NCBI GenBank assembly: GCA_015232315.1
Contig: JADFZZ010000021.1
Coordinates: 2,006 to 66,005 of the forward strand
Direction of reading: 5' to 3'
Length of the DNA: 64,000 bases
Source of the DNA: SAR324 cluster bacterium
GTDB lineage: Bacteria; SAR324; NAC60-12
The first letter of the stretch is position 1. Each line of letters starts with the position of its first letter. Under the pieces are notes generated by a model, which worked only from the letters and a program-made list of their open reading frames with translations, was not told the origin of the DNA and did not search any database. This document shows, in pieces, positions 1 through 46,124 of this stretch. The translations under genes were made by a program, and so were the position numbers.

Positions 1-1990
1 GTAAACCCGTCAAATTCAGGAAAATAACCTGAGAAATTCCAAAACCCATTAAAAAGACACCACATAAGCCAAGAAGCGCGGGAGTGAGCATAATCGCGAA
101 CGTTGTGTTCATATTGGAATGAAATTCATCGGCAATCTTGAATACGAGTTCCAGATGATGTAACCCGCTATCCAATAAAATAATCTGCGCTGTGTCTGTG
201 GCAATGGTAGAGGCGCCGCGCATGGAGATCGAAACTTGTGCTTTTTTCAGTGCGATTGAATCATTAATGCCGTCTCCGATATAACAGATAAAATGACCTT
301 CCTTTTGCAGTTGTTCAATAAGATCCGCTTTCTTTTCCGGCAGGCACTGCGCAAAATAGTGATCAATTCCCAGTTCCCGCGCTAATTTTTTCGTGGGAAT
401 TTCATGATCACCCGAGATAATATACATGGATTTGATATTCTTGCGTCGTTTGAGTTGACGGATCACTTTTCTTGCTTCCTCACGTATTGTTGTCAGCAGT
501 TCAATTCCCCCTATGACCTGGTGATCCACAGCGACCATGACCAGGGAATCGCCTTCTTCATGACTGATTTGCTGTTGTTTCGCCAAAATTCCGGGAATGG
601 TCATACCGGACATTTCCATAAACCGTTGACTGCCCACATGCACCGTTTTTCCATCCACAACCACAAGGACTCCATAACCAGCCTTGAACTGACTTTCATC
701 GAAGGACGGTATGCTTAACTGGCGTTTTTTAACCTCTTTCAGAATGGCTTTAGCCAGGGGATGGGTTTGTTTGGATTCAGCGGCACCGGCATAAACCAGC
801 ACCTCCTCTTCGCTGAAATGCGAGCAACAATGAATCTGGCCGATATGCGGCTGTTCCTCAGTCAAGGTGCCTGTTTTATCAAACACGATCGTATCCACCT
901 GTTGCAGTAACTCAAAAGTGCGTCCATCCTTAATCAGAATTCCCTGCTGGGATGCAATGTTGGTATAATTCAGGATGGTTGTAGGGGCAATGACCATCAT
1001 TTTATTTTTGGGGTGCGTATAAATGACAGCGAGCGCGCCACTGAAGCCAACGATCGGTAAGGCAACCCCTCCGGCGATTAAGGCGGGTTTCACCAAATTA
1101 TCCGAAAGGGTTTGCGCTCGTAATTGCTGTGTTGATTTATAGTCAATGGTATTGTTCAGAATATTGGTGATTTTTGCCACGGTACAATCCTGACCGGCTT
1201 TTTCCACTTTAATATAGATTTTCCCTGATAAAATAACTGTTGCCGCAAAAACTCCATCTCCCTGTTCTTTTTCAATGGGCCGTGCCTCGCCTGTCAGAAT
1301 ATGTTCATCAATGCTCGCGATGCCCTCAACAATAATCCCATCCGCGGGAATCACTTCACCTGCCTGAACCACGACAATATCATCCACACCAAGATCGTTG
1401 AACGGTATTTCAGTTTCAACCTGATTCACCACAATCCAGACTTTTTCGGGCTGTTGATAAACAACATCGAACAATGCCTGTTTGGATGTTTGAACCACTT
1501 TTTCCATAAGCCTCATTGCGGCCCTGATGACAACAAGAATCAGGCTTGCCGCAAAAAATTTTCCTGTGATGACACATCCCGCGATGGTAATACTCATGAG
1601 TGTGCTGACATGGACTTTTTTCTGTTTGATCAGTTCATAGCTTTTTTTGAAGGTCTCCTGACTGGCGTACATAATGAAAGGAAGACTGAGCACGGCAACA
1701 CCAGGGTAGACAAACCCGGCAAGGCAAAGTCCAAAGGCGGACCAGATCGCCAGAAAGTCATACATTTTTTTCTTTTCAGCATTTTTATGGATCAGCTCAT
1801 ACTTTGTCTCTGATTTTTGAATTTGTTGAGAATCCTCTTTAAACATTTGCGTGACTTTATCCTGAATGCCGGTTTTGATTTCAGGCGAGTCATTCGTTTT
1901 GACAGGAAGTTCACCTTCCTCCATACTTTTTATGTATTCCTGATAACCCACATATAAGATTCCGCCCAAAGCGATCGCTTCAAAAATCAT
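1..1990 (-). CDS. P-type ATPase. The catalytic core resembles P1B ATPases, but there is no N-terminal metal-binding domain and no CPC motif. The N-terminus is at 1990 and the C-terminus lies beyond the window start.
   Basis: The reverse-strand translation begins MIFEAIALGG. It contains VDTIVFDKTGTLT (phosphorylation motif), ISGDHE, LPEKK and GDGINDSIAL. AGGAG sits 7 nt upstream of the ATG. The ATG overlaps the TGA of the upstream R gene (ATGA). The N-terminal 25 aa are similar to those of the ATPase at 48800-50863. Confidence 0.8.
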   Translation of the reverse strand, partial: MIFEAIALGGILYVGYQEYIKSMEEGELPVKTNDSPEIKTGIQDKVTQMFKEDSQQIQKSETKYELIHKNAEKKKMYDFLAIWSAFGLCLAGFVYPGVAVLSLPFIMYASQETFKKSYELIKQKKVHVSTLMSITIAGCVITGKFFAASLILVVIRAAMRLMEKVVQTSKQALFDVVYQQPEKVWIVVNQVETEIPFNDLGVDDIVVVQAGEVIPADGIIVEGIASIDEHILTGEARPIEKEQGDGVFAATVILSGKIYIKVEKAGQDCTVAKITNILNNTIDYKSTQQLRAQTLSDNLVKPALIAGGVALPIVGFSGALAVIYTHPKNKMMVIAPTTILNYTNIASQQGILIKDGRTFELLQQVDTIVFDKTGTLTEEQPHIGQIHCCSHFSEEEVLVYAGAAESKQTHPLAKAILKEVKKRQLSIPSFDESQFKAGYGVLVVVDGKTVHVGSQRFMEMSGMTIPGILAKQQQISHEEGDSLVMVAVDHQVIGGIELLTTIREEARKVIRQLKRRKNIKSMYIISGDHEIPTKKLARELGIDHYFAQCLPEKKADLIEQLQKEGHFICYIGDGINDSIALKKAQVSISMRGASTIATDTAQIILLDSGLHHLELVFKIADEFHSNMNTTFAIMLTPALLGLCGVFLMGFGISQVIFLNLTGL

Positions 1991-3168
1991 AATTCTCCTT
2001 TGTGAATATACCCGCTCTTGTGAAAATATGAAAAATAGGTGGACAGCAAATTCACATCCAGGGGGGGGCAATGAATACCGGAACCCGCTAACCCTTCCTG
2101 CGTGAGGCCATCTTGAAATCGGGGTTTGTTTTCAGAAAAAAAAGCTGAGAGTCTAAGCATCAGCAATATTCGGGAATATAGCTCCTCTTTCGGCTTGGCT
2201 GAAGCACGTTTTTTTAATTGGACGGTCCAATCTTTTTCGCTGACTTCTTCCAGTGAATAACCCAGAGTCCGTACATGTTCAAAAAATACTTTCCAGGAAA
2301 TGGACTGCGCGTTCAATAAATGAAATACCTTTCCAAACGATTCCTGTTGGTTTGATAAACGACAGATGGCCTGACTGATATAGTCCACAGGCGCAACATT
2401 GACTTCGACATCCGCGATAGGAAAGGTGCCCATTTGAATACAGCTTTTCAGCAGACCACACAAGGAATCATTGAGATTCCCCATAATCCCGGTTTGAGTA
2501 TGTCCCCAGACTCTTCCGACTCGATGAAGGGTGGCAGGCAACCCTCTCTTTTGCGCGGTCAATACCAGTTGTTCCGCAACCCATTTACTTTGTCGGTAGC
2601 CACCACTCAAAGTTTTTCCATCAGGAATAGCCGTTTCAGTGATATCCGCGTTATGGTGAGCAGGACTGAAAAATACGGCAATACTGGAAATGAAATGAAC
2701 CGGTTTTGTTTGGGTCATGCCTGCTAAACGAAGCACTTCCTGTGTGCCCAGCACATTTGGCTTTTTCAAATCAGCGTAAGGACGCGCCGCGTTCACTTGC
2801 GCGCCATTATGATAAATCACCTCAATACAACGGGATAAATCACCAAACTGAGATTCTGAAAGCCCTAAGAAGGGTTGAGACAAATCCCCAACGACAGGAA
2901 TGATCCGGGAATGGTACCTCTCGTTCCACAGTTGGTAAAACTGCAACTGCCTGGTTAAACGCTGTTTTCCTTCGTCAGAATCACGACAACGAACCAGACA
3001 ATAAATATCGGCCTGTGTTTCATTGAGGAGCACCTGCAACAAATAGGCGCCAATAAAACCTGAAGCACCTGTCAAAAAAACCGAAGGGGGATTCTGCCAG
3101 TTTTTGGCTAAAGGCCCTTGAAACTGAATGTTGGTGTCTAAAACAGCTTCCGTTTCCAAATCGATCAT
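1987..3168 (-). CDS. Stand-alone thioester reductase (an SDR resembling an NRPS/PKS terminal R domain).
   Basis: 393 aa. NAD(P)-binding motif TGASGFIGAYL and catalytic YRQSK. Its order and size match the fused R domain at the end of the ORF at 43088-46102. The start overlaps the stop of the aminotransferase gene (ATGA). Confidence 0.8.
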   Translation of the reverse strand: MIDLETEAVLDTNIQFQGPLAKNWQNPPSVFLTGASGFIGAYLLQVLLNETQADIYCLVRCRDSDEGKQRLTRQLQFYQLWNERYHSRIIPVVGDLSQPFLGLSESQFGDLSRCIEVIYHNGAQVNAARPYADLKKPNVLGTQEVLRLAGMTQTKPVHFISSIAVFFSPAHHNADITETAIPDGKTLSGGYRQSKWVAEQLVLTAQKRGLPATLHRVGRVWGHTQTGIMGNLNDSLCGLLKSCIQMGTFPIADVEVNVAPVDYISQAICRLSNQQESFGKVFHLLNAQSISWKVFFEHVRTLGYSLEEVSEKDWTVQLKKRASAKPKEELYSRILLMLRLSAFFSENKPRFQDGLTQEGLAGSGIHCPPLDVNLLSTYFSYFHKSGYIHKGEL

Positions 3169-4514
3169 GCGATTCCGGTCATGGAACGTTTCACCTGAGC
3201 GATGCTGGATTCCAAAGTGGCGACCAACTCATCACATTCACTCTCTGTAATGACAAATGGGGGGGAAATCAATATGTGATCCCCATCCTTGCCTGTTCCT
3301 GTACCAAACCGACCTCTGAGAATCAGCCCGTTATCGAGAGCTTTCTGAACCACTTGTTCGGTGAGTTTCATGGAACGGGGAAACGGTTGATGCGTTGTTT
3401 GATCCTGAACAAATTCAATCCCGATCAGCAGACCCTTACCACGGACATTACCAATGAGAGGCTCTCGCCCAGCCAGTTTTTCCAGTTCTTTTTTCAGATA
3501 AAGCCCCATGGAGGCGCAACGCTCAATCAGATTATGTCGCACGATGTAGTTCTGAACAGCCAGGGCCGTGGCACAACTGACAGGATGTCCGGAGTAGGTT
3601 ACCCAGGCGGGAATGGTATCTTTATTGTTTTTAACAAATAGTTCCCATATCCGTTTATGCACAATAGTGGCTCCAATGGGTGCGTAACCACTGCTCAGGC
3701 CTTTTGCGCCTGTAATGATATCGGGGATTGCGTTCCAGTGTTCAATGCCAAAATTTTTGCCCGTTCGTCCAAATCCGGTAACCACTTCTTCGGAAATAAA
3801 CAAAACATCGTATTGATCACAGATTTCCCTGATTCTTTCATAATACCCAGGAGGCGGGACAATCCCGCTCCCTGCTCCGCCAATAATCGGTTCAGCGATA
3901 AAAGCGGCGACCGTGTCGGGGCCTTCCTTTTCGATCGTGGTTGCCAATTCATCAGCACAGGCGAGAGCACAATCCGGGTGGGTGAGTTGAAACGGACACT
4001 GATAACAATGAGGGGCGTGAATATGCGGAAAATTCAACTCGTAAGGCGCCATCACATCCCGTTGCACAAACACGCTCCCGGACATGGATAAGGCCGCGAC
4101 CGTCCGTCCGTGATAACTATGCCAACGGCCAATGATCTTCCATTTTTGGCTATTTCCCTGTTCAATATGATAGTGTCTGGCGATCAGCAGTGCGAGTTCA
4201 TTCGCGACGGAGCCACCCGTGGCAAAAGCCACCCGATCCATGCCTTCCGGAGCCATGTCAATAATGACATCCGCAAGCTGTTCCTGCGATTCGTGGGCAA
4301 ATTGCATTTTGTTCACAAACGCGATTTTACGTGATTGCTCCGCCATGGCCTCCGCGATTTCAGGAACACCATGTCCAATGGAAACCACATGGGTTCCGCC
4401 AATACCATCCAGATAACGTTTGCCATCGGTGTCATAAATATAAACGCCTTCACCGCGTTCCGCGAAAGGACGAGGTTTTTTACTGAAAAAAACATGAGAT
4501 TCCGAGTGTTTCAT
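3165..4514 (-). CDS. Class-III PLP-dependent aminotransferase (omega-transaminase-like).
   Basis: 449 aa. Motifs FISEEVVTGFGRTG and DIITGAKGLSSGY (PLP lysine). There is an AAGGA RBS and an ATG start. It lies directly downstream of the megasynthase. Confidence 0.85.
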   Translation of the reverse strand: MKHSESHVFFSKKPRPFAERGEGVYIYDTDGKRYLDGIGGTHVVSIGHGVPEIAEAMAEQSRKIAFVNKMQFAHESQEQLADVIIDMAPEGMDRVAFATGGSVANELALLIARHYHIEQGNSQKWKIIGRWHSYHGRTVAALSMSGSVFVQRDVMAPYELNFPHIHAPHCYQCPFQLTHPDCALACADELATTIEKEGPDTVAAFIAEPIIGGAGSGIVPPPGYYERIREICDQYDVLFISEEVVTGFGRTGKNFGIEHWNAIPDIITGAKGLSSGYAPIGATIVHKRIWELFVKNNKDTIPAWVTYSGHPVSCATALAVQNYIVRHNLIERCASMGLYLKKELEKLAGREPLIGNVRGKGLLIGIEFVQDQTTHQPFPRSMKLTEQVVQKALDNGLILRGRFGTGTGKDGDHILISPPFVITESECDELVATLESSIAQVKRSMTGIA

Positions 4515-4550: not shown

Positions 4551-7500
4551 CTACATCAACATTGGAAATGAACTCACGGATTGATCAGGGTTGAGTACCA
4601 TTTCCTCCAAAACGGATTGAAAATTTTCTATGATCCTGATCACGGTTTCCGCGTCAAAGAGATCTTTTCTGTAGCGCCACCATCCCCGGAGTGTATTTCC
4701 GGTTGGCGTCTTCTTTTCCCAAATCAGCAGTGCTAAATCCGGTCTTGTCACCAGTTCATCCAACGGCATGGAACTGATGGTCAGATCGGGTAAAAGGAAT
4801 TGTTCGGACGGTTCCATCGGGAAGAAACTGAGCAGTATTCTGAATAAAGGCGTATCAACCTTCCGCTCCGGTTGCAGGATTTTTGACATTTGCTCAAAGG
4901 GTAAATCCTGGTTGGAGATAGCCTCATTCACAACCTGTTGGGCCTGACGCAACAAGTCAGAAAAACCGGGATTTTCACTGAAATCCAGACGCAACAGCAA
5001 CGTGCTTCCAATCATCCCGATCAGATGTTCCAGTTCAGACTGGTTACGATTCGCAAAGGGAGATCCCACCACAATATCCTGACAACCACTGTAGCGATAG
5101 AGCAACGTGGTCAGTGCGGACAAGATCGACGTGAATAAAGTGGTTCCCGTCTGTTTGTTCAGGTTTTTTAGATTTTTAACCAGCTCCGAAGGCAGTTCAT
5201 AAAGCTCCGTGCCTGCCCGGAAAGCCGGAACCGGTTGACGAGGTCTATCGGCAGGAAGTTCCAACAGCGGCGGTTCTCCCCAGCCTAACCAATTCCGCCA
5301 ATAATTGAGTTTTGTTTCAAGGGCCTCTCCGCTGAAAGACTGTTGCTGCCAGACCGCGTAATCCGCATACTGTATCGGCAGACCCGGCAAGGATACAGAG
5401 GCACCGGATATGATGGCTTTATAGAAGATAGTCAGCTCTTTCAGAAAGATTTCCATGGACCAGACATCCATGACGATGTGATGGACGCAAAGCAACAGAA
5501 TATGAGATTCTTCCGCCAGCCTGATCAACGTGACACGCAACAAGGGGCCTGTGACCAGATCAAAGGCGCGGCGTTGAATGTCCTCATCCGCCAATCGTTT
5601 CACTTCTTCAGTCTGTGCCTGTTCAGACATTCCCCGCAAATCTGTGATTGTGATATTGATGGTGGAAGTTGGAGCGATGGACTGAACCGGAGAACCTTCA
5701 ACCAGAGGAAACGTAGTCCGCAATATTTCATGGCGATGTACAATTTCATTCAAACTTTGTTGTAAGATCTTAAAGTCCAGCTTTCCCGTGAGCCGAAACC
5801 AGCGGGGAAAATTATGAAAACAGCCGTCAGGGTTTGATGTCTGGTGCAGCCAATACCTCTGTTGTGAAAAAGAGAGGGGCATGTTGCCTTCACGGGATAC
5901 GGGGATCAGATCGGTATCCTGAACAGTTCGTTCCTGAATGGCCTCATCGTTGACGGAACGATCCGGGGTTTCTCCGATCCGCTGTTGTTCCTCCGGTTGA
6001 ACCTCGGGAAACTTTTTTGCGTATTCGACGTAAATGTGGTCAGACAGTTGCTGGACATTGCCATAATTATAAAGGGCCGTCGTTTTCAGTTTAATGCCAA
6101 ATATTTTATTGATTTTATTAATAATCTCAATGCTCATCAGCGAATCCACGCCATAGTCCAAAAACGATTTTTCCCGGGCTACAGAATCGTTGACCAGTCC
6201 CAGCGTACTGTTCACACACGCTGTAACTTTTTCTTCAATGGTCAGCTTCAGGGATTTTTTCCCGACATCCGTTTGCGGAGATAACGCGGGAAAGTTGTCA
6301 GACGAAGGCGAAGAAGGACTACGTTCTTTCGTTGTTATGGAAGAAGGTGTTTGCTTTTGATAGGCCACCACACCGTTGCTTTCAGCGATCACGATTTGGT
6401 GGGGTTCATGCAACTCTCCCAGTCCCGGATCTCCAAGGTTCGTGATCTTCGCATAGCCTTCTTCCTCAAGCACCCTGTTCCACAACCTGAAATTCAACAA
6501 CGGCCCCCCGCCCAGGCGGATTTCCTCATCTTCATACAACCACCAGCCTTTCAACAAACCGAAAGTTAAGGTGACAAAATCAGGCGCTTTGGACAGTTCA
6601 TTAATGATCAAGACCCCGTTCCTTTTCAAAAGTGATTTGATCTGGGTCAACGTGTTCCTGATGCGTTTGGTGGCATGAAGTACATTTGCCGCCAGGACAA
6701 TATCAAAATCGTCAGGCTTGTAGCCCTGATTTTGAAGATCCTTTTCAATATCCAAAACACTAAACGTCATAAAAGGATATTGTTCACCCAATAGTTTTTT
6801 GCCGTATTGGGTCAACGTGGGGGAAATATCCGTATAGACATAATGGATATGGGGACTGTAGGCCTTGACCGCCTCCAACACCAGGGAGGTGGTTCCACCT
6901 GTTCCAGCGCCGATTTCCAGTATTCGGATTGGTGCTTCATTTCCTTTCGTCAAAGAAAGTCTTTTTTCCACATACAGACGTAAACTTTCGGCGACCCGTG
7001 TATTAAAATAATCCGCGGTAACATTTTTTTTGTATATCCCTTCCACAAGTTCCGGCGATGAATCGGGGAACATGATATTCGTTGCGGGAGTCTCCCCCCT
7101 CAGGATCGCCGGATAATGCGCTATACATTCCCCAAGAAGCCTGAGGTGGGGTTGAATTGACGGAAACTGCCGGAGTAAATCCTCCTTGATCCGCAATTGA
7201 AATTTCCCGGTTTCTTGTGCGGTGATGATATGTTCGCCCTGTTTTTCAATAACACCTGCCCGGGTCAGAATGTCCAGATGCGCGTCAAACAAGCGGTCAT
7301 AGTCCGGTTGTATTCCGAGGTGTTGTCTCAGTTCCGTCCTTGTATAGCGTTCATCTGGGGTTTTGAACACTCCCATTCTCTGATAAGCCGCTAACAGCAA
7401 TTCACGGCTGAATGCTTCCAATTCCCCCAAGGCCACTTCAAACGTTTGGAGTTTTTTGATCTGCTCGGGCAATCCCTGGATTTGCTCAGAAAAATTTTCA

Positions 7501-10500
7501 ACCACGGAGGGGATCGCTTCAGGGTACAGATGGGACTGTTTTTTCAGTTCAATCCCCATTGCGGTTAAGGCGTTATTCTCCGCTTTCACAACAGCAAGTT
7601 GATTGAAGGGATTTTCCAGTGCCCTTTCGATGGCCTGCATCCCCTCCTGAACTTCAATGGAGTAGATCCCTTGCGCTGAAAGTTTTTCCCTGTATTTTTC
7701 ACTGGCCACAACACCCACGTTGCCCCAATATCCCCAATTGATGACCTTAACCGGATAAGACATTTTCTGTTTCAGATACTGCGCGAAGGAATCTTCAAAG
7801 GTGCTGGCCGCGGCATAATTACTTTGTCCCTGATTTCCCAGAAACGACTGGATAGATGAAAAGAACATCATAAAATCCAAAGCTTCTCCAGCCAGTGCCC
7901 TGTGCAGAAAAACACTGCCGTTGACCTTTGGCGCAAGCACTTGCGCAAGGATTTCCTCATTCATGTTCATGACAGAACTGTCTCGCAGAACAAGAGCGGA
8001 ATGAATGGCTCCGTTGATCGGGCCAAACGATGATTTGGCTTGTTCCAAGGCCTGCCTCATACTTTGCGGGTTTGTCACATCGGCCTGAATGTAGAGTACT
8101 TTACCACCCGCTTTTTCTATCCGGGCGATTTTATCTGCCAGAGCATCATCCATTTTGCTTCGGCCCACCCAAATCAGACGGGCCTGCACCGCACTGGCCA
8201 GATATTCACTCAAGGCGAGTCCGATGCCGCCTGCGCCACCCACAATCAGATACACGCCCTGCTGTTTAAAAGGAGTTTTCTGTATCTCGGACAGTGAGAT
8301 CGGCAGTAGTTTTTTGACATAACGGATTCCGTCACGGAGGGCGATTTCTTCAGCATCCTTCCGTGAGGATTCCATGACAATCAGGTCCCCGGTTTTTGAC
8401 AGGGAGTTTTGCAGATCCGCCAGACTGACATCCACACAACGGGTTTCCAGATCCGGAAATTCTCTTGCCACACTTTTTGAGAATCCTGTAACGGAGGCGA
8501 CATAAGGATTGAGGGATTTTTGTGAATAAACCTGCCAGGCATTCGTCGTGATGACAGTAATTTTTATACGGTCCCGGACAGTTTCTTTTCTGTTCAGAGC
8601 CTGAACCAGTCGGAACAGAGAAAAGACGCTTTCTTCCTGACTTTGTTTCAGCACCTCCGGATCCTTATCCAGGGGATCATAAATTCCAGCAAAAAAATAA
8701 ATCACGTCCGGCGCCTCAATTTTTTCCAGCAGATGGCCTATGGCCGAGGGATCATTCGTCTGAATTTGAGTCCGTTGAAGCACTCCCTGCCTTGAAAACG
8801 CAGGACTGCTTTCCCCCTCTTTCCCCAGGAGTATCTCATACACCGTCGCATCACGATGCGCCTCTGCCAGGTAACGGGATAAATCCCTGATTTCCTGAGC
8901 CACATCCGCAGGATAAATGAGGATAACGGTGGCGGCGGAAGGCATAGACTTAGAGTCTGGAGCCAAAGGCGAGGGAACCCATTCAGGCACACAAAAGGTC
9001 AAGGGCCTTTGCTGACGTTGCATAGCACGAGGATCGGCTTTACGTCCCTCAAAGCCCAAAAATTCTATCGCCGGATTGCCCTGCTCATCAAAGAGCCGGA
9101 TATCCCCAAGGAGGCTGTCGTTTCCTGAATCAGGCTGTAATTGACAGTGTCCCCATAAGGGCTGTTGCCTGGAATTTTGATAAAACAGAACTTTTTCTAT
9201 GCGGAACGGAACAAAAGTTTCCTCTAGCGTTCTGTCCATGGCCAATAAGGATAATTCGAAACCGCCATCGATCAACCCCGGATGCAGTTGATATTTGGCT
9301 AATCCAGACAAGGCTGCGGGTGGGATCAATCGGCAAATCGCTTCACGATTCCCCTGACGGATGGATTCGATCCATTGATACGCTGGACCCAGGTCAATCT
9401 GACGCTTACGTTGACTTTGGAAAAAGTCGTCAACCGGGATTGCCTTGGAACAGCGGTCCAATAATTTTGTCAAAAATCCGGAGCCCGGTTTTACATCGTC
9501 AAAGCGTGGTTCTGTCAGAATTTTTCCGGAAACATGAGTGAGCCAACGATCCTTATTTTTTCCGGAACTGATGAGTTTAAAAGAGGATTTATTAGGTTCC
9601 TCAGGAATGAAGGCTAACTGAACCGTACAGCCTTCGTCAGGAATGATCAGGGGTTGCTCAAAAAGGACATCCTCCAGGACACAGTTTTTAACTCCAAAAG
9701 TAATTTCCGCGGCTTCCAGTATCATGGAAATATAACAAGATCCTGAAACCACCATTTTATTATAAATCAGGTGATCCGCCAAAAAAGATAATTTATCCCG
9801 ATGAAAGAAGGTTTCAAACACCGTACTTTCCAGAAAGGGCGAGATGATCTGTTTATCCAGCAACGGATGCAGTTGAGTGTTGGCAGAGTGTGAAGGTTCC
9901 AGACGCTCTGTAGGTCTGTCGATCCAATAACGCTGACGCTGGAAAGGATAAGTTGGCAAAGCCACCCGGCGACGTTGATAGTCATGGTCAAAAGCTGTCC
10001 AGTCTATTGCCGCTCCAAGTCCATACAACTCACCTAAACTTTGCAGAAGTTGTTGCCAATCCTCAGCGCCTTTACGCAAACTGGGAAGCCACACCCCCAC
10101 GTCTTCAGGCAAACAGGAATGTCCCATACCCAATAAGACGGGTTTCGGCCCTATTTCCACAAACACCTCACAACCCTGCTTGTGCAACGTGGCCATGCTT
10201 TGGGCAAAATTGACAGGCTGAGTGATATGCTGACACCAATACTCCGGTGTGGTTATTTCCGCGGAAGCCACTTCACCGGTCAGATTAGAAATCAGGTTGA
10301 TTCCGGGTAATGATAACGTAACCTCCTCAACAACCTTGGAAAACGCCGGTACCATGGGTTCGATCAGAGGCGAGTGGAACGCATGAGAAACCGTTAAGGG
10401 GTTTGTCTTGAGCCCCTCAGTTTCCAATTTTGCGATAATGGTCGCAAGGGCCTCCCTCTGGCCTGAAATCACAATATTTTCAGGGCCATTGAGGGCAGCA

Positions 10501-28318: not shown

Positions 28319-29515
28319 TTATTCAGCTTTTATTGAAATTCCTTCCATGTTTTCAAATTGGGCTTGAAGTCCCCAGCCATTGAACAGCATTTTATCTTCA
28401 GTAACGGCTAAACACAGTTCATTATTTCCTTCCTTGAGTGGGAGATACAATTCGTAGAACAATCCCATCGTTCCTAAAAATCTATAATCTCTTGAACTCT
28501 CTTTATTGTTGCCGGAAAAGAGCAACTGGTCATTCAGATAGACCTTCACCTCATCGTTGAATCCAAACTTCAGTTTTTTGATTTGGGCGGTTTTGGCGGA
28601 AATGACTATTTTTGCGAAAACCGTATCGTTGTCTTTTACAAGCCCCTGGACTTTGGCGAGATTGATTAAACCGGAACCTTCGCTGTCGTATGTTTTCCAA
28701 CTGAGGCCTTGTTTATCCGCATTTTCAAGAGCAATTTTATTTTCCAGAAATTTTTGAGGGAAAGCCTTGGAAACCGACCAGGAGGCCACGGCTCCCTCAA
28801 GCCTGGTTTCTTCTTTGAAGGTAGTTGCTTTAAGGATGGGCATACCCTTTGTAAAACTGAAATTGGCGAAACGTACAGGTAGTCCTAGTGCCCATAACAT
28901 AACGCCACCTGGTGCGCTTTCGCGTTTTAATGTTACGGCTATGGCTGGTGTCGCCATGTCCTGGATATACATTTCAGCTTTATCATCCGCCAGGAGAATT
29001 TTGACATGCACAAATTCATTCAAGGGATATTGATTGTTTGAACCATATCCCTTTTCAGGTGAATATAATTGCCAGCTTTGCAACCCATTGAAAAAGGTCT
29101 GATATTGACTGGCATCCGGATTTCCGGATTGGTGTCCACGAAGATAAAAATGTTCGAAATTTTCTGAATCCTGGGCACGGAAGATAAGTCCCCCCATTGT
29201 TCTTCCAGTGGCTAAACTAATCGAAGGGAAGGCTAGATCGAATTCAATTGTTCCATTTGCGAGTCCCTCATTTTTTAATATAGCCAATCCATTTTGAAGA
29301 AGCAGACTTTTTCCCCCCTGAAAATCCTCCACTGTAGAAGCAAAAGGTAAAAAGGGCATCATTTCAACGATGTTCCACTTTTCAGGATCAAAAGCGGGAA
29401 TCATGGAATTTTGTGGAGTGACTGTTGGGGTTGTTGGTGTATTCGCACTACAACTTCCGATAAGTAAGATAAAAATCGAAATGAAGGTGATTATTCTAAA
29501 TTGTATTTGTTTCAT
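28319..29515 (-). CDS. Hypothetical lipoprotein.
   Basis: The likely start is M39 (MKQIQFRIITFISIFILLIGSC, signal peptide plus lipobox). There is no recognisable family. Confidence 0.45.
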   Translation of the reverse strand: MKQIQFRIITFISIFILLIGSCSANTPTTPTVTPQNSMIPAFDPEKWNIVEMMPFLPFASTVEDFQGGKSLLLQNGLAILKNEGLANGTIEFDLAFPSISLATGRTMGGLIFRAQDSENFEHFYLRGHQSGNPDASQYQTFFNGLQSWQLYSPEKGYGSNNQYPLNEFVHVKILLADDKAEMYIQDMATPAIAVTLKRESAPGGVMLWALGLPVRFANFSFTKGMPILKATTFKEETRLEGAVASWSVSKAFPQKFLENKIALENADKQGLSWKTYDSEGSGLINLAKVQGLVKDNDTVFAKIVISAKTAQIKKLKFGFNDEVKVYLNDQLLFSGNNKESSRDYRFLGTMGLFYELYLPLKEGNNELCLAVTEDKMLFNGWGLQAQFENMEGISIKAE

Positions 29516-29687
29516 ATAAATCTCCTGAATAAAGGAATGGTTGTAAACGCTACAACGGGTGAATAAAAAAATTTTGAGAATGGGGAACGTGGTTTGGAAT
29601 ATCCACAGGAAAATGCAAACGCCTGGCAATTCTTGCGGATCTTCTTGAAGAAAAACGATGCCGACATTTTAAGTGATGTCGCTGATT

Positions 29688-31507: not shown

Positions 31508-32494
31508 TTAATTCCCTGATGCGGCTTTTTTTGTATTGTCCGGTTTAGGCAACGGAACAACTTTGGCGGGAACAGTAGGGGAATCTGTGTTGTTGTCATT
31601 TTTTTTAGCATCCGGAACAGTCTTGGTCTGCGGTTGTTGGTCATTTTCGGCACTTAAAATGATAGGGAGCGATTTTCCATCATTTCCAACAATAATCACT
31701 TTGCTGTTGGTAGAACTCGCCAGTTTGAGTGTGGCCTGGATGCCTTTCCATTTGAGGTATCGGTCACTCAGTGTGCTGGTCACAATTTCCTGAAACCTGG
31801 AAATTCCGGTAGCTTCAATTTCCAGTCGCTTCAATTCCTGCCGTTCTTTTTCCAACAGAAACTGATATTGCAGAAACTGCTGTTCATACCGTAATTTGGT
31901 TTCAATGGCTGTATTGATGAGGTCGGGCAGTCGGATATTCCTGATAATGATATCAACAAACACGATCGGCATATCGCTATTTTGTTCGACGGCTTCAATG
32001 AGCATGTCATTTTGAAATTCATCAATTCGGCTTTTATACAACTCTTCAGGCCGATATTGTCCAATTATTTCTCTGACAGATGAAATGGTGACAGGATTCA
32101 CAATTTTATCCTCATATTCCGGACCAACCTTTTTATGAAGTTTGGGGAGTTGTTCGTATTCCAGATAAAATCTGACTGAAACCTCCAGAATGATGGTCAA
32201 ACCATCTGAGCTCAACACAGAGGTCGTAATGCGACGCTCCTGAACACGCGTGTCATAAACGTGCATGACGTTCAGGGGAAATATGACATGGGTGCCTTCA
32301 CCATACACCGTTGTCATGTCTGTTCCGCCGAGAAATCTACGGTATAACACCCCCCCTTCGCCGGAACCAACTGTTACAAAGACAAATTGAAACAAATAGG
32401 CCAGCAGGAACAAACAAACAGATCCAATCAGGATACCTGTAAAAAACAGGTTATCCCGATTATTTTTCAACCATAACTTTACGCCTGTGCTCAT
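31508..32494 (-). CDS. SPFH/band-7 (prohibitin/stomatin-like) membrane protein.
   Basis: N-terminal TM helix, SPFH core (GGVLYRRFLGG..., RITTSVLSSDGLTIILEVSVRF), a coiled-coil segment and a Pro/Lys-rich tail. Confidence 0.8.
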   Translation of the reverse strand: MSTGVKLWLKNNRDNLFFTGILIGSVCLFLLAYLFQFVFVTVGSGEGGVLYRRFLGGTDMTTVYGEGTHVIFPLNVMHVYDTRVQERRITTSVLSSDGLTIILEVSVRFYLEYEQLPKLHKKVGPEYEDKIVNPVTISSVREIIGQYRPEELYKSRIDEFQNDMLIEAVEQNSDMPIVFVDIIIRNIRLPDLINTAIETKLRYEQQFLQYQFLLEKERQELKRLEIEATGISRFQEIVTSTLSDRYLKWKGIQATLKLASSTNSKVIIVGNDGKSLPIILSAENDQQPQTKTVPDAKKNDNNTDSPTVPAKVVPLPKPDNTKKAASGN

Positions 32495-33120
32495 ACAGCA
32501 GACGCTTCAGGCTTGGTGGTATCTGGAGTTGCGGCCTTCTCCTCCGCGGATTCTTTTTTGTTTGGTTTTAATTTTTTCACTAAAGTTTTCCCTTTTTCCA
32601 ACATATCCTTGTAGTAGCCTTTGTATTTTTCAGGATCAAAATTCAGAAAATCTCCTCCTGATTCAAAATGTCGGACAAATACCCGACCAACCGCATAGGT
32701 GGAGGCTCCAGCAAACATTGGAAAAGAAACAATTCCCACGGCTGTTCCCCAAACTGGAAAAACTTTTAACATGCTAAAGCTGATTTTTCCCAAGGCATCG
32801 GTTCCAATTCCGCCAATAAGTGCCGCAGTCAAATTCTTTCCAGTATTTTTATTAAAAGAAACCTCATATAACGCTGAAATTTCTGACAGCATTTTTATCT
32901 GCACTGCGCTCACTGCCACAATGTCTACAAGAGGTAGAGGAATGGCCCCGCCACCCATCGACCAGAGAACATTGCGATGAATGATCAGATCGGCCTTCAT
33001 TTCTTTTTCTGAGGACACCTTTTCCTTGGTTGAGGTTTCCGTCGAATTTGTTTCTGTTTCGGAAGAAACCGGTGTTTTGGATGTGGTTCTCGATTTTTTC
33101 GCTTCATTATTATCAGCCAT
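32491..33120 (-). CDS. Hypothetical membrane-associated protein. The terminal regions are acidic and lysine-rich.
   Basis: 209 aa. Overlaps the SPFH gene by 4 nt. The central hydrophobic region is SMGGGAIPLPLVDIVAVSAVQI. The family is uncertain, possibly DUF697-like. Confidence 0.45.
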   Translation of the reverse strand: MADNNEAKKSRTTSKTPVSSETETNSTETSTKEKVSSEKEMKADLIIHRNVLWSMGGGAIPLPLVDIVAVSAVQIKMLSEISALYEVSFNKNTGKNLTAALIGGIGTDALGKISFSMLKVFPVWGTAVGIVSFPMFAGASTYAVGRVFVRHFESGGDFLNFDPEKYKGYYKDMLEKGKTLVKKLKPNKKESAEEKAATPDTTKPEASAV

Positions 33121-33488
33121 ATAACTCCTTTTCGTAGGTCATCATATTAAAAATCCTGTTTCCGTAACTGCTGAAAACAGAAAAGGGTTCAATTCAAAAC
33201 ACAGATGAGCATCCGGTTTTCTGGAAGCCGGATTAAGTGCACCATGACAAATTTTTACTCCAATTTCAACATTGATTTTATAATATTTATTTCAACTTCG
33301 GATTCGTATGGCACAGGTTAAAAAAAGTGAGTCTGCTACCCAAGATTTGTTTTGAGCATTCTAATTACCCGATCAAAAGTTTTTTAACATTAATCTGGTT
33401 CCTGACCTCTCGTGCTGAACGTGTTATTTCGAACCGAAGGCGAGAAATCTTGAAAAAAACTACGCATTTCTAACTTGGTTTGGTTTAG

Positions 33489-42118: not shown

Positions 42119-42182
42119 TCGAGGAATCCCTGGAGACCATTCTCGATGAATGCAAACACCGCGGTATCACAAAGGAGCATTT

Positions 42183-42413
42183 ATGAATACAGCGACCATT
42201 CACATACCTGAAACATTACCCAGTGAGATAGTACAAGGATTGATTCAAGAATTTGAAAAAATGCTTGAATCAAAAGCTAATGAAGTGAATAGCCAGGAAT
42301 GGGCGAACTTAGTCGAAAGTGAGCAATCTCAAGCATGGTTGGAAGCTATGGTTGCTCAAGTGGATATTGAACACAGCGCAGAGAAAACAGAGAAGGGTGG
42401 ATGGAACAGATAA
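42183..42413 (+). CDS. Putative antitoxin of a type II TA pair (76 aa).
   Basis: AAGGAG RBS. Small and acidic. Its stop overlaps the start of the downstream RelE/ParE-like ORF. Family not recognised. Confidence 0.35.
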   Translation: MNTATIHIPETLPSEIVQGLIQEFEKMLESKANEVNSQEWANLVESEQSQAWLEAMVAQVDIEHSAEKTEKGGWNR

Positions 42414-42700
42414 AATCTTATCGCTCATCTCAATTTAAAAAATCCTTTGAAAAACTTCCTTTATCTGTGCAAGAGCAGGCTAAAAAAGCCTACGCTCTTT
42501 GGAGCGATAACCCTTTTCATAATTCCCTTGAATTCAAGGTTATCAATAAGAAATTAGATGTTTATTCCGCAAGAATTAGCCTGAATTGGAGAGTGTTAGG
42601 ACTTTTTTAAGGAGGCTTCCCCACCAGCGGTAGGGAACCACAAAATATTCGTAACGATTGGAAGAAAGGAGCAAGTATATGATTATTCGCACGTTATCCG
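42401..42700 (+). pseudogene. RelE/ParE-like toxin gene interrupted by a frameshift in a T6 run.
   Basis: The track ORF at 42401-42610 encodes ...VYSARISLNWRVLGLF and then stops. The next frame continues as ...KEASPPAVGNHKIFVTIGRKEQVYD, which resembles the conserved RelE C-terminal ...IGHRKDVY. The T run is at about 42603-42608. The reconstructed protein would be about 101 aa. Confidence 0.4.
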
Positions 42701-43065
42701 ATATTGAACAGACTGACCGTGATGTTGCCTGGGGGAATGGACAAAGCCGAAGATTTCTCATTGCCAGTGACGGAATGGGTTTCACGTTGACGGATACTGT
42801 CGTTCTGGCGGGTTCAGAATCAAGATTGCAATATCGTAATCACGTTGAAGCTTGTTATTGCATTGAAGGCGAAGGGGAAGTTGAGGTGGATGGTAAAATT
42901 TACCCGATCAAGACCGGCACAATGTATGCGCCAAATCAACACGATATTCATTATCTTCGAGCGACTAAGACAATGCGTCTGGTGTGTGTGTTTTCGCCTG
43001 CGTTACAAGGCCCTGAATCCCATCAACTGCAACACACAGACAATCCTTCCGCCTCAAGTTATTAA
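42679..43065 (+). CDS. Ectoine-synthase (EctC)-like cupin.
   Basis: 128 aa. MIIRTLSDIEQTDRDV...EACYCIEGEGEVEVDGKIYPIKTGTMYAPNQHDIHYLRATKTMRLVCVFSP aligns along its length with Halomonas EctC (MIVRNLEEA..TDR...EAVYCIEGEGEVE...DGKIWPIKPGDIY.LDQHDEH.LRA.KTM.L.CVF.P). AAAGGAG RBS. Confidence 0.85.
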   Translation: MIIRTLSDIEQTDRDVAWGNGQSRRFLIASDGMGFTLTDTVVLAGSESRLQYRNHVEACYCIEGEGEVEVDGKIYPIKTGTMYAPNQHDIHYLRATKTMRLVCVFSPALQGPESHQLQHTDNPSASSY

Positions 43066-43087
43066 CGGCATCGCTTCCGGGTTTCGC

Positions 43088-46000
43088 ATGAATTTTTCTC
43101 AGACTTCAATGACTGATTTTATAGAGCTTGTTCGTACACAGGCTTCCAAAAATCCGCACAATATTGCCGTTTATCACCGTAATCAGATACTCAACTATGA
43201 ACAGCTTGAGCGTCGTTCTAATCAACTCGCTCATTATTTACTGAGTCTGAAGATCCAACCTGAGCAGTTGATCGGTTTATGTCTGCCCCGTTCGATCCTG
43301 TTGACGGAGGCCATGCTTGGAATTCTAAAGGCCGGAGCGGCTTATGTGCCGTTAGATCCTGCTTATCCACGCAAACGTCTGGAAGACATGCTGGAAGACA
43401 GTCAACTGAATATTGTGCTCCTGAATGATGCCACCGATCATCTGATTTCATCGTTAAAAACCCTCAATTCTGAACTGCAAAAAATTCATCTGGCATTGAA
43501 CTGGGAGATCATTGCGTCATTCCCTTCAACGCCTCCCGATATCACCTTCCGTGACGACCAACTTGCCTATTGTTTATACACATCAGGTTCCACAGGAAAA
43601 CCCAAAGGGGTGCTGATGGAACACAAACCGTTGTCCAATTTAATCCACTGGCATCTTAAAAATCGTGTGACTCCCGCACGTCAATTGCAATTCGCACCTC
43701 TGAATTTTGACATTTCTTTTCAGGAGATTTTCGCGACCTGGTGTTCAGGTGGCAGTTTGTTTATCATAGACGATTCTGTCAGACGCAATCCATCCGCATT
43801 ATTGGATTTTATCTGCACCCACGCCATAGAAAAACTCTATTTGCCATTTACGGCCCTGCAACAATTGTCTATTATCGCACACGACAGTGATCACTACCCT
43901 GTGCAATTGCGTGAGGTGATTACCGCTGGAGAACAATTGCAGATTACTCCGGCAATTCGGGAACTCTTTACACGTACCGGTGCCCGGTTGCATCATCACT
44001 ATGGCGCAACGGAGTGTCAGGATGTTACCGCACTGGATCTGACAGGTGATCCGCAAGATTGGCCCTTACTCCCCTGCATTGGAAAAGCGATTGATAATAT
44101 ACAGATCCATATTCTGGATTCGCGGTTATCTCCGGTAGGCAGGGATGAAACAGGTGAACTTTATGTGGCGGGAGATGGACTGGCACGTGGTTATCTGCAT
44201 CGGCCGGAACTGAATGAGGCTCGATTTATCAACACACCAGATATCGGACGCCTTTATAAAACCTGCGACAGAGCCCGATACGGCACCGATGGACAGATAG
44301 AATTATTAGGACGATCTGATCATGCGGTGAAAATTCGTGGATTCAGCGTGGAGTTGGGGGAGATTGAAGCGATTTTACTGCAACATAAAGATATAGATCA
44401 GGCAGTGGTAGTGGCACATCAAGATGATTCCGGTCATAAACGACTGCTGGCCTATGTGGTGTTACACAAAAACAAAATACTATCCACCCAGCAATTGCAT
44501 GAACATCTGGAACAACGTTTACCTCAATACATGATTCCGGCAATGTTTATTCTCTTGGACGGCCTGCCTATGACGCCAACCGGCAAAGTCAACCGTGGTG
44601 ACTTACCACCACCTTTTATGCAGGTGCGTCCGGAAGTGGATCACAGTTTTGAATCGGCACGTACCCCCCTGGAAGAAACCTTGACTACAATCTGGCAAAA
44701 CGTGTTGAACATTGAACAGATCGGAATCCATGATGATTTTTTTTCACTGGGAGGAGATTCCTTTTTGCTGATTACATTATTCAGCACGATAAAGAATCAA
44801 CTGGGAACGGATGTCCCACTGGCTGATTTGCTACAAGAACTCAACATTGCCGATCTGGCCAACTTATTACAGCATAAGGCCCCGCATCCAAGCCATACCG
44901 CTTTGTCAGTCAATGAACTACAGGGCTATGCTATCTGTCCGCTTCAATCTCAGCTTCCGGCAGTTACAGAACTGAATAAGCCAAAAAATATTTTATTAAC
45001 AGGTGCGACGGGATTTCTGGGTTCATTCCTGTTACAGGAATTGCTGGAGAAAACCGATGCTGATATTTATTGTCTGGTGCGGGGCAAGGACCCCTCACAG
45101 GCGTTACAACGTTTGCTCGACAGTCAGAAACAGCGTGAGTTATCCCTTTCAACAGATTTCCACAAACGACTGCATGTGGTGTGTGGTGATATGGCCAAAC
45201 CCCTTTTGGGGGTAACCCGAAAACAATGGAAGCATCTGACTGAACTGATTGACAGTGTTTATCATGCCGCGGCAAATATTAACATGTTATACCCTTATCC
45301 GGTACTTCACGCCATCAATGTTCAGGGAACACAGGAGATTATTAAGTTTTCCACGCATTCACGTTGCAAAACCTTGCACTATATTTCCAGCACAGCCATT
45401 TTTGAAGCTCAGGGATTTTTTCATCGACAACAGCCGATTCCTGAAAATATTGATATTCAGGAATGTGCCCGTATTTACGGCGGTTATGCTCAAAGTAAAT
45501 GGGTTGCTGAAAAACTGTTGCATCAGGCTCGGGAAAAAGGGCTTGCTGTGAGTATCTATCGTTTGGGGATGTTGACAGGACACAGCCGTTCCGGCGTATC
45601 CAATATCAACGACATGATGTGCAAACTGCTCAAACAGTTTGTGGTACAAAAACGCATCCCTGAATTGACCACTCCACTGGATATGACTCCGGTTGATTAT
45701 GTAGCTCAGGTGATAGTCCATTTATCACAACAGACTCCGGAAAATGGCTACTGTTTTCATGTTGTGAATCCTCAACCGCCTTCTTTTTTTGAATTATACC
45801 GGTTCTTCAACCAATTGGGATATCCTCTGCAAATGATCAATTATGCTCAATGGATTGATCAACTTGAAAACCTGTCACTGGATTCAAAGGAAAACGCTTT
45901 GGGAACGATGTTGCCCATTTTTACGGAAAGCGTTGAGGGCAAAACCTACCTGGAATTTTCTTCTTTATGTCAGAACTTTAATCATGATAATACTCACCTT

Positions 46001-46102
46001 GGATTAAGCAACAGTTCTATACGTTGCTCTGCGGTAACACCGGATTTGTTGTCAACCTATTTGAATTATTTTGTACGGCAGGGCTTTTTGAGCGCTCCCT
46101 AA
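43088..46102 (+). CDS. Single-module NRPS with domains A - PCP - R (thioester reductase).
   Basis: A domain: LAYCLYTSGSTGKPKGV, FDISFQEIF, YGATE, TGKVNRGDL. PCP: FFSLGGDSFLL. R domain: LTGATGFLGSFLL and YAQSKWVAEKLL. The upstream part of the track ORF (42845-43087) overlaps ectC and was discarded. Confidence 0.9.
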   Translation: MNFSQTSMTDFIELVRTQASKNPHNIAVYHRNQILNYEQLERRSNQLAHYLLSLKIQPEQLIGLCLPRSILLTEAMLGILKAGAAYVPLDPAYPRKRLEDMLEDSQLNIVLLNDATDHLISSLKTLNSELQKIHLALNWEIIASFPSTPPDITFRDDQLAYCLYTSGSTGKPKGVLMEHKPLSNLIHWHLKNRVTPARQLQFAPLNFDISFQEIFATWCSGGSLFIIDDSVRRNPSALLDFICTHAIEKLYLPFTALQQLSIIAHDSDHYPVQLREVITAGEQLQITPAIRELFTRTGARLHHHYGATECQDVTALDLTGDPQDWPLLPCIGKAIDNIQIHILDSRLSPVGRDETGELYVAGDGLARGYLHRPELNEARFINTPDIGRLYKTCDRARYGTDGQIELLGRSDHAVKIRGFSVELGEIEAILLQHKDIDQAVVVAHQDDSGHKRLLAYVVLHKNKILSTQQLHEHLEQRLPQYMIPAMFILLDGLPMTPTGKVNRGDLPPPFMQVRPEVDHSFESARTPLEETLTTIWQNVLNIEQIGIHDDFFSLGGDSFLLITLFSTIKNQLGTDVPLADLLQELNIADLANLLQHKAPHPSHTALSVNELQGYAICPLQSQLPAVTELNKPKNILLTGATGFLGSFLLQELLEKTDADIYCLVRGKDPSQALQRLLDSQKQRELSLSTDFHKRLHVVCGDMAKPLLGVTRKQWKHLTELIDSVYHAAANINMLYPYPVLHAINVQGTQEIIKFSTHSRCKTLHYISSTAIFEAQGFFHRQQPIPENIDIQECARIYGGYAQSKWVAEKLLHQAREKGLAVSIYRLGMLTGHSRSGVSNINDMMCKLLKQFVVQKRIPELTTPLDMTPVDYVAQVIVHLSQQTPENGYCFHVVNPQPPSFFELYRFFNQLGYPLQMINYAQWIDQLENLSLDSKENALGTMLPIFTESVEGKTYLEFSSLCQNFNHDNTHLGLSNSSIRCSAVTPDLLSTYLNYFVRQGFLSAP

Positions 46103-46124
46103 CAACCTCTTCTCGTGGATCTAC

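Follow-up and report, generated by a model that had tools for sequence, protein, structure and literature searches.

The DNA analysed here, called the window throughout, is a 64,000-nucleotide stretch of the SAR324 cluster bacterium assembly GCA_015232315.1 (contig JADFZZ010000021.1, positions 2,006 to 66,005, forward strand). Our subject is a pair of genes for P-type ATPases, ATPase-A and ATPase-B, which lie about 47 kb apart in an island of biosynthetic genes.

1..1990, minus strand: ATPase-A, an A-type, Cys-less, P1B-like ATPase; 663 of 694 amino acids in the window
48800..50863, minus strand: ATPase-B, a B-type, Cys-less, P1B-like ATPase; 687 amino acids, complete

ATPase-B is a complete open reading frame (ORF), and ATPase-A stays open for 663 codons and runs off the start of the window. 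Since a full-length protein from a SAR324 metagenome-assembled genome (MAG), P0121 (694 aa), is 100% identical to ATPase-A over all 663 residues, the window misses 31 C-terminal residues of this copy. A first-pass annotation of the window had called the two proteins paralogues with a common motif core and similar N-termini, and this was borne out: they share 41% protein identity over 667 aa (BLASTP, E 1e-174), both start with a similar hydrophobic N-terminus, and FDKTGTLT, IISGDHE.PT, LP..K and GDGIND..AL are found in both, as is TGE. TGE, DKTGT, SGD and GDGIND are invariant in the two copies and across the family described below, and by these motifs both ATPases are catalytically intact. The only Pfam domains recognized in either protein are E1-E2_ATPase and Hydrolase; as the annotation had also said, Pfam finds no heavy-metal-associated (HMA) domain and motif inspection no CPC in ATPase-A or ATPase-B.

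The arrangement of the genes was likewise described correctly. Both lie on the minus strand, that is, in direct orientation. ATPase-A had been reported as translationally coupled to a reductase gene, and the overlap at 1987-1990 is real: in ATGA, TGA is the stop of the reductase ORF (1987..3168) and ATG the start of ATPase-A (GGAGAATTATGATTTTTGAA), with a Shine-Dalgarno-like AAAGGAG preceding that start. ATPase-B is convergent with the amidinotransferase gene at 47498..48619 (plus strand), the last of its operon, across a gap of 180 nt; terminator and promoter scans around ATPase-B stayed at or below chance level.

ATPase-A and ATPase-B are ancient paralogues

The first-pass annotation had further treated the two genes as direct repeats of about 2 kb and thus as substrates for recombination. 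At the DNA level this did not hold: blastn aligned the genes in three patches only (232, 208 and 102 nt at 69, 67 and 72% identity), and the longest exact word common to both is 16 nt. Since RecA-type recombination requires roughly 20-30 nt of perfect identity, the similarity is insufficient for homologous recombination.

Each protein has its own relatives (loci of the survey described below are numbered with the prefix L). For ATPase-A, these are found at 70-50% in Beggiatoa sp. PS, "Deltaproteobacteria bacterium TL4," Kentron symbionts, Thiomargarita, Methylococcales, and Entotheonellaceae; for ATPase-B, at 60-50% in TL4, Thioflexithrix, Beggiatoa leptomitoformis, and Thioploca, with a 99% identical fragment, also from SAR324, as the closest match. 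In other genomes each copy has orthologues that resemble it more than the second copy in the window does, and the two are therefore ancient paralogues. In a neighbor-joining (NJ) tree they fall into separate, well-populated clades with other clades between them, and in TL4 the family is represented by one A-type gene and two B-type genes, each on a contig of its own. In L142, L199, L155 and L179, a pair of family ATPases from different subclades lies in one locus, in tandem or convergent, so that two paralogues per island, as in the window, are recurrent.

A P1B-like clade outside the known subtypes

Among solved structures, the best sequence relatives of the two proteins are CopA, ZntA, HMA4, and a Cd/Co pump (PDB, E 1e-50 to 1e-58), and both copies pass TIGR01525, the NCBIfam model of the P1B subfamily, with 392.6 and 377.8 bits against a cut-off of 346.25. 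Narrower models were failed by both, namely TIGR01511 (268-270 against 397), TIGR01512 (274-302 against 313.5), NF033775 (231-233 against 1240), and NF007952 (238-240 against 1316); none of the Cu, Cd/Zn, ZntA and CopA subgroup models is passed by either ATPase. The KdpB equivalog model (144-149 bits against 527.9), the P5B model TIGR01657 (94-102 against 618), and the P4 model TIGR01652 (23-32 against 431) were failed as well.

AlphaFold2 models built with alignments (pLDDT 77 and pTM 0.65 for ATPase-B; 72 and 0.53 for ATPase-A) predict an extra N-terminal helix (residues 2-22), a disordered linker, and then MA, MB and M1-M6, i.e., 1+8 helices, the latter eight at 60-86, 89-116, 122-135, 139-171, 264-308, 310-342, 607-642 and 646-686. 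M4 is modelled as unwound at C319-N320-F321 in ATPase-B and at T325-H326-P327 in ATPase-A. The best Foldseek matches are CopA in the E1 state (7r0g, TM 0.72-0.77), ZntA, LpCopA and ATP7B, with KdpB only after these, and the HP motif of the P1B N-domain is invariant (H404-P405). Together, the modelled fold, the NCBIfam score and the HP motif indicate that ATPase-A and ATPase-B are P1B-like, and the clade resembles CopA, ZntA, CadA/CoaT and ATP7A/B in its best sequence and structure matches, in its MA/MB plus M1-M6 layout, in the HP motif and in passing TIGR01525.

In other respects, it departs from these pumps. All seven P1B subtypes (1B-1 to 1B-7) are defined by a Cys-containing tripeptide in the fourth transmembrane helix (TM4, here M4): CPC, CPH, SPC, PCP, SCA or CSC (PMC13460109). 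Unlike them, the clade has none of these tripeptides and no M5 "YN" (the aligned residues are "PG"); it carries the extra N-terminal helix, has SGDHE in place of TGD, and sits in biosynthetic rather than metal-homeostasis neighborhoods. No HMA, His-rich, hemerythrin or other cytoplasmic metal-binding domain, a feature that is frequent though dispensable in P1B pumps, was found by Pfam, the N-terminus being the hydrophobic helix and disordered linker. Since the ligand features that define P1B fail, we do not file the two ATPases under 1B-1 to 1B-7.

KdpB is the next-best structural match and likewise has no Cys ligands. The clade differs from it, however, in its low score with the KdpB model, in possessing MA/MB helices, and in its neighbors, with no kdpA- or kdpC-like gene found in the window or in the annotated family neighborhoods. 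The "APTT" of ATPase-A recalls what we take to be the "IPTT" of KdpB, but it is not conserved in the A clade. With P4 and P5B pumps, homology is limited to the general P-type core; the helix number differs (8+1 versus 10+), and the PPALP/PISL motif is lacking. We therefore assign the ATPases neither to KdpB nor to P4/P5. Type-I families of functionally uncharacterised P-type ATPases (FUPA) without CPx presumably exist, and the clade may already carry a TCDB number to which no function is attached.

A family HMM built from 20 members separates full-length members (at least 640 bits) from ordinary P1B pumps (at most 463), and the clade is monophyletic in the NJ tree. It is also small: the N-terminal membrane segment of ATPase-B (175 aa) matches only 462 of 1.84 billion representative proteins (E <= 1e-3). 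The A and B lineages are two old sister lineages in one distinct, uncharacterised P1B-like clade.

Ligand positions in M4, M5 and M6

M4 reads T-H-P-K-N-K in ATPase-A and S-C-N-F-M-E in ATPase-B. The register was set by the invariant M4 proline of the family, which is as far from the phospho-Asp (D) as is, in ordinary P1B pumps, the second proline of CPCALGLATP. In this gapless register, the CPC positions (D-44..D-42) are occupied by F-M-E in B and P-K-N in A, and by F-G-T in a third subclade; alternatively, HMMER treats the "cpc" of CopA as a three-residue insertion directly after Glu323. The soft-metal site is lost under either alignment. In M5, "ALIYN" of CopA aligns with "AIIPG," M6 reads G..NAMLP, and the P1B ligands of M5 and M6 (YN...MxxSS, K...DxG, HEGT) were not found in ATPase-A or ATPase-B. 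Judged from these alignments, every known P1B soft-metal ligand has been replaced in the clade. ATPase-B has a semi-conserved Cys319 ("SCNF") three residues before F-M-E, and the A clade has no such Cys.

Position D-42 is, we assume, the universal M4 ligand position, occupied by Glu309 in SERCA, by Glu327 in the Na,K-pump and by the second Cys of CPC. It is Glu323 in ATPase-B and Asn329 in the A clade, where it is flanked by Lys328 and Lys330. Across 23 A-type sequences, His326 and Lys328 do not vary, and Lys328 presumably takes the place of the M4 proline that every other P-type pump has. The B clade conserves an Asp in M1 and a KTED motif after M2, and the A clade has Arg/Lys in M1 and no KTED. 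A soil subclade, with the M4 motif NSDxGTGIRMAAPLAMLS, has a conserved Asp/Glu at D-45. The CPC-equivalent stretch is conserved inside subclades and hypervariable between them, a pattern that fits substrate differences from cluster to cluster.

The clade travels with genes of specialised metabolism

The survey of neighborhoods covered 110 family loci including the window (45 of the soil subclade, 64 others and the window itself), drawn from 13 genome-scan loci, protein look-ups, and most of 120 metagenome loci that were found by the family-specific DNA pattern ISGDHE-N123-GDGIND. The genome scan used generic P-type motifs; among the matches listed, 13 of 80 loci belonged to the family, and the rest were reused as controls, which comprise 89 loci of ordinary P1B pumps.

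Genes for nonribosomal peptide synthetases (NRPS), polyketide synthases (PKS), adenylation or reductase enzymes neighbor the ATPase in 16 of the 64 non-soil loci, compared to 2 of the 89 controls (Fisher p 1.8e-5, odds ratio 14.5); when only loci with at least 4 kb of flank are counted, the figures are 14/40 and 2/74. L108, L196, L099 and L198 resemble the window in that a synthetase gene ends directly before, or within, the start of the ATPase gene. Among 241 neighbors of 56 non-soil loci, Pfam recognized Condensation (6), AMP-binding (5), PP-binding (4) and saccharopine-dehydrogenase-like domains (5), together with several sulfotransferase families, methyltransferases, radical S-adenosylmethionine (SAM) enzymes and class-III aminotransferase. 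The 150 sampled neighbors of ordinary P1B pumps included FeoB, thioredoxin/DsbA, YHS and MarR, and no sulfotransferase or NRPS domain was among their 25 commonest families. The linked loci span 38-67% GC and include Gammaproteobacteria, SAR324/TL4 and an Acidimicrobiia MAG; because the linkage recurs over this range, the ATPase is taken as co-inherited with specialised-metabolism genes across phyla. The clade thus travels with such genes, often translationally coupled to them, and the two copies in the window belong to a lineage strongly linked to biosynthetic genes rather than to a housekeeping metal-ATPase clade free of such links.

The 45 soil-subclade loci have unknown partners of their own. 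Two small conserved proteins of unknown kind (~137 and ~192 aa) usually flank the ATPase, either singly or together, and the ATPase is often followed by a second, degenerate P-type-ATPase-like protein without DKTGT and with a weak HMA_2 match (for example L008:1540-7540, L172 and L208).

Genes of the island

Homologues of the window proteins were counted by tblastn (E < 1e-10). L209-L211, added later, enter these counts only and bring the non-soil loci to 67; figures such as 3/0/0 below give the loci with a homologue as non-soil (67)/soil (45)/control (89).

1987..3168, minus strand: stand-alone thioester reductase (NAD_binding_4), with orthologues by family ATPases in L005 (46%), L086 (43%) and L211 (54%); 3/0/0
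3165..4514, minus strand: class-III aminotransferase
4551..16808, minus strand: megasynthase of 4085 aa, A-KR-ACP-KS-AT-DH-KR-MT-ACP-C; 11/0/1
16862..18301, minus strand: stand-alone adenylating enzyme (AMP-binding, 479 aa), with 41-48% homologues by ATPases in L001, L005, L086 and L096; 6/0/0
18352..18918, minus strand: chorismate pyruvate-lyase-like protein, Rv2949c family
19072..19785, minus strand: sulfotransferase (Sulfotransfer_2), by ATPases at 52-59% in L005, L086 and L211 and at 29% in L087; 4/0/0
19760..21103, minus strand: HemN-like radical SAM enzyme, by ATPases at 66% in L001 and 50% in L086
21093..21353, minus strand: stand-alone acyl carrier protein (ACP; PP-binding), with homologues in L001, L005, L086 and L096; 4/0/0
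21368..22267, minus strand: second sulfotransferase (Sulfotransfer_1)
23215..24363, plus strand: radical SAM-SPASM enzyme, of a family that also flanks the ATPase in L085 and L161
24716..26593, plus strand: exported sulfatase with a lipoprotein-type signal sequence and homologues in L086, L087 and L096; 3/0/0
28319..29629, minus strand: uncharacterised protein of 436 aa; in L086 its homologue and the sulfatase form one fusion protein
31508..33120, minus strand: Band_7/SPFH and DUF697 pair, found as a pair by the ATPase in L001, with Band_7 in L012 and DUF697 in L114; Band_7 2/0/0, DUF697 2/0/0
42658..43065, plus strand: EctC-like ectoine synthase (cupin; PF06339, E 3e-44), heading the right operon
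42845..46102, plus strand: A-PCP-R NRPS of the carboxylic-acid-reductase type; 11/0/0
46125..47432, plus strand: class-III aminotransferase
47498..48619, plus strand: SxtG/StrB1/AGAT-like amidinotransferase (E 2e-51), with B-like ATPases in operons of L086, L152 and L157; 4/0/0

The left operon runs on the minus strand from 22267 to 1, from the second sulfotransferase through ATPase-A. Its chorismate-lyase-like protein is the likely source of an aryl starter, and the reductase and aminotransferase would together turn an acid into an aldehyde and then an amine. The neighboring radical SAM-SPASM enzyme and sulfatase read as an anaerobic sulfatase-maturase pair. In the right operon, the listed TTG start of the A-PCP-R gene is probably wrong and the true start later, because it overlaps the EctC-like gene; the combination of genes there suggests an unusual cyclic amidine or guanidine (ectoine-like) product. 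The EctC-like gene was considered as a conserved partner of the family and rejected, being absent from the other family loci.

The regions of the window whose homologues adjoin family ATPases elsewhere are 1,987-33,120 and 42,845-48,619. The first-pass annotation had the two ATPases bracket the cluster, which stands in part. The right edge agrees with it, since beyond ATPase-B come TerB-like, metallo-beta-lactamase-like (MBL) and haloacid-dehalogenase-like (HAD) genes and an IS4/5 transposase, followed by housekeeping genes. The central 20 kb or so of the island, with leucine-rich-repeat (LRR), HEAT, cyclic-nucleotide (cNMP) and ABC genes, does not, having no link to the family. Nor do ATPase copies flank the cluster in relatives: L086 has a single ATPase inside its operon, not one at each end. 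The ABC transporters of the window are not enriched near family ATPases, their homologues occurring in 1-2/0/3-5 loci. No homologue of the TerB-like and MBL genes upstream of ATPase-B was found beside family ATPases in the surveyed loci, and the HAD gene has one, in L204.

The middle region includes an operon at 31508-37693 (minus strand) for the Band_7/SPFH and DUF697 proteins, a cNMP-binding protein and a 1249-aa HEAT-repeat protein, and a second cNMP-binding gene at 41109-41537 (minus strand). A two-gene cassette at 42150-42610 (plus strand; 87 and 69 aa, the second a weak ParE-like toxin match) lies between the ABC genes and the right operon. On the right flank, there are the IS4/5-family transposase (53284-54162, minus strand), a short phage-integrase-family gene (60392-60961, minus strand), and, at 61808-63478 (minus strand), a formylglycine-generating-enzyme (FGE)-sulfatase domain fused to a CsgG/LpoB-like domain.

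Family loci in other genomes

One counterpart of the island is L086, a one-strand operon with ten window-protein homologues and its single ATPase (48% to ATPase-B). It encodes a phosphopantetheinyl transferase (PPTase), a PKS (38% to the PKS part of the megasynthase), methyltransferases, an amidinotransferase (34%), a PRMT5-like methyltransferase, an adenylating enzyme (41%), an ACP (51%), a HemN-like radical SAM enzyme (50%), a sulfotransferase (56%), a sulfatase fused to a homologue of ORF 28319-29629 (38%), a reductase (43%) and an aromatic ammonia-lyase. The only recognisable transporter in L086, and likewise in L087, is the ATPase.

Smaller sets of the same genes recur elsewhere. L211 has a reductase (54%), TauE, a sulfotransferase (59%) and an A-type ATPase (57%); L005, from an Acidimicrobiia MAG at 67% GC, has the ATPase with an ACP, a reductase (46%), an adenylating enzyme (48%), a sulfotransferase (52%) and an A-PCP-R gene; and L001, from Beggiatoa leptomitoformis, combines the ATPase with a HemN-like enzyme (66%), an ACP, an adenylating enzyme, Band_7 and DUF697. 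Amidinotransferase, Orn/Arg decarboxylase and ATPase follow in series in L152, and amidinotransferase and then ATPase in L157. L084 groups the ATPase with SET, an NNMT-type methyltransferase and a decarboxylase, and saccharopine-dehydrogenase-like genes abut the ATPase in L153, L154 and L191. In an Entotheonellaceae MAG (L210:410-12337), an A-like ATPase lies inside a toyocamycin-like 7-deazapurine cluster, which holds QueD/QueE/QueC-type genes, GTP cyclohydrolase I, a phosphoribosyltransferase (PRTase), an IMPDH-like gene, adenylosuccinate lyase and synthetase, a kinase and a HAD gene.

Further observations concern individual loci. A TauE/TSUP anion permease lies beside A-type ATPases and sulfotransferases in two unrelated loci (L088:12220-13215 and L211:3960-4913). 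In Thiohalocapsa sp. (L209:5591-6746), an A-type ATPase sits amid transposases and an amidinotransferase split into two ORFs, which looks like a decaying copy of such a cluster. A matching of subclade to charge, with A-type ATPases beside sulfotransferases and B-type beside amidinotransferase or decarboxylase genes, was tried and left as speculation, its A-type prediction holding in 1/3 new loci; sulfotransferases flank non-A clades too (L129, L125, L201 and L086).

Possible export of charged organic products

The linked pathways are predicted, from gene content, to yield amines (reductase plus aminotransferase), guanidines (amidinotransferase) and sulfate esters. All four cluster sulfatases (window, L086, L087 and L096) carry signal peptides. 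Since PAPS (3'-phosphoadenosine-5'-phosphosulfate)-dependent sulfation takes place in the cytoplasm and the cluster sulfatases are exported, a sulfated compound must cross the inner membrane, and the system appears to include an extracytoplasmic step that removes the sulfate ester. Our best-supported reading, held tentatively, is that the ATPases are pumps dedicated to the charged organic products of their clusters; an export role was among those that the first-pass annotation had put forward.

On this proposal, each pump would run through an ordinary E1/E2 phospho-enzyme cycle, and what it moves across the inner membrane would be a charged organic compound, either the product of the adjacent pathway or an intermediate. 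For ATPase-A this would be an O-sulfated aryl-polyketide amine, delivered to the periplasm and there accessible to the exported sulfatase. ATPase-B would carry a small guanidinium or amidinium compound, with Glu323 of M4 and the M1 Asp as counter-charges. More broadly, and with greater doubt, a P1B branch may have been converted into ATP-driven transporters of guanidinium/ammonium compounds and sulfate esters, possibly also of polyamines and nucleoside antibiotics, with M4 retooled clade by clade (Glu in the B type, Lys-Asn-Lys in the A type) to suit the product of each cluster.

P5B polyamine ATPases (ATP13A2) and P4 flippases provide a precedent for a P-type cycle that moves organic cations or amphiphiles, and several family loci carry polyamine- or guanidine-type genes, a functional analogy only. 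The dedicated exporters of toxin and antibiotic clusters (MATE proteins such as SxtF/SxtM and CyrK, ABC, MFS) are likewise encoded by a transporter gene embedded in the cluster, and in the sxt and cyr clusters this gene is co-inherited with a guanidine or sulfate-ester pathway; unlike all of these, a P-type ATPase belongs to a different protein superfamily. In the literature searched, we found no paper on a P-type ATPase as a component or exporter of a biosynthetic cluster.

Several points weigh against an organic cargo. We know of no P1-type ATPase that carries an organic substrate and of no experimental precedent for one. ATPase-B is convergent with its operon, not co-transcribed, and may be monocistronic; because it has Glu at D-42, which is what hard-cation P2 pumps use, it could simply pump an inorganic cation. 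A heterodimeric ABC exporter in the window (37690-40882) could do the export instead. The prediction of an A-type ATPase beside a sulfotransferase was true in L211 and false in L209 and L210. The 45 loci of the soil subclade showed no biosynthetic linkage, and a few of them have NRAMP-, TerC- or CaCA-looking genes (named by sequence only). As for the survey itself, ORFs in the loci were called by a simple, crude script and clustered by BLASTP, the controls are without taxonomic matching, and a single sample contributed at least 10 of the metagenome loci.

Alternative roles

A serious alternative, particularly for ATPase-B, although we consider it less likely on balance, is that inorganic hard-cation or proton pumps (Ca2+, Mg2+, Mn2+, K+, Na+ or H+) were recruited to the clusters, where they could supply a cofactor, compensate charge or pH during secretion, or protect against a product that disturbs gradients. 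All characterised P1-type pumps move inorganic cations (PMC13460109). The metal-transporter-looking neighbors in a few soil-clade loci and two CorA matches among non-soil-clade neighbors point the same way, as do the conserved Asp/Glu at D-45 of the soil subclade and the Glu at D-42 of ATPase-B, a register in which, as we take it, Ca2+ and Na+/K+ pumps have their ion-binding Glu. Ion channels are the target of guanidine toxins such as saxitoxin, and an ion-homeostasis gene for resistance against such toxins is conceivable. However, the putative binding stretch differs radically by subclade (F-M-E, P-K-N, F-G-T), which would be unexpected for one shared ion, and some members are without the family's M4 proline. 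In the A type, an invariant Lys, a His and a second Lys in the site disfavor cation binding, and the non-soil clade lacks the metal-homeostasis neighbors that are typical of P1B pumps.

It is improbable, in our estimate, that the ATPases act like P4 flippases on an amphipathic product with an alkyl chain and a sulfated or guanidino head, or serve as a scaffold or regulator together with Band_7/DUF697. PKS-derived alkyl products are likely, the membrane core has few charged ligands, and Band_7 and DUF697 genes adjoin the ATPase as a pair in L001 and singly in L012 and L114. Many linked clusters, however, make small polar molecules, as judged by the amidinotransferase and decarboxylase of L152, the 7-deazapurine genes of L210, and polyamine-type genes, and the intact catalytic motifs argue against a purely structural role.

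That ordinary housekeeping Cu/Zn/Cd/Co efflux pumps lie near the cluster by chance is very improbable. Public annotations of relatives do read "heavy metal translocating," "Cu2+-exporting" or "cadmium-transporting," and the generic model TIGR01525 is passed, but every metal-specific NCBIfam model fails, the Cys-containing TM4 tripeptide that defines all seven P1B subtypes and the HMA domain are missing, the M5 ligands are replaced, and the neighborhoods are unlike those of real P1B pumps. The idea that ATPase-A and ATPase-B, in the same orientation and about 47 kb apart, let the island excise or duplicate by homologous recombination has almost nothing left to it, given three short DNA patches at 67-72%, a longest exact match of 16 nt, old paralogues each with its own orthologues, and, in TL4, the nearest genome with data, three family genes on three contigs.

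Implications

The labels "heavy metal," "Cu2+" or "Cd" ATPase that databases give to this family are probably wrong. The linked clusters are themselves uncharacterised, combining aryl-primed PKS/NRPS assembly, reductive release, transamination, amidination, O-sulfation and an exported sulfatase, and are carried by lineages that are hard to culture, among them SAR324, large sulfur bacteria and Entotheonellaceae. Since the family is small (hundreds of clusters at 50% identity) and the carriers Beggiatoa leptomitoformis and Thiothrix nivea are cultivable, its role is directly testable. If the cargo is indeed organic, the substrate range of P1-type ATPases would extend past inorganic ions, and natural-product mining would gain a new marker gene for export or self-resistance. 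The conversion of a P1B branch to such substrates, if true, would make this branch the third group of P-type ATPases, after P4 and P5, to have invented the transport of organic substrates independently, and the first bacterial one.

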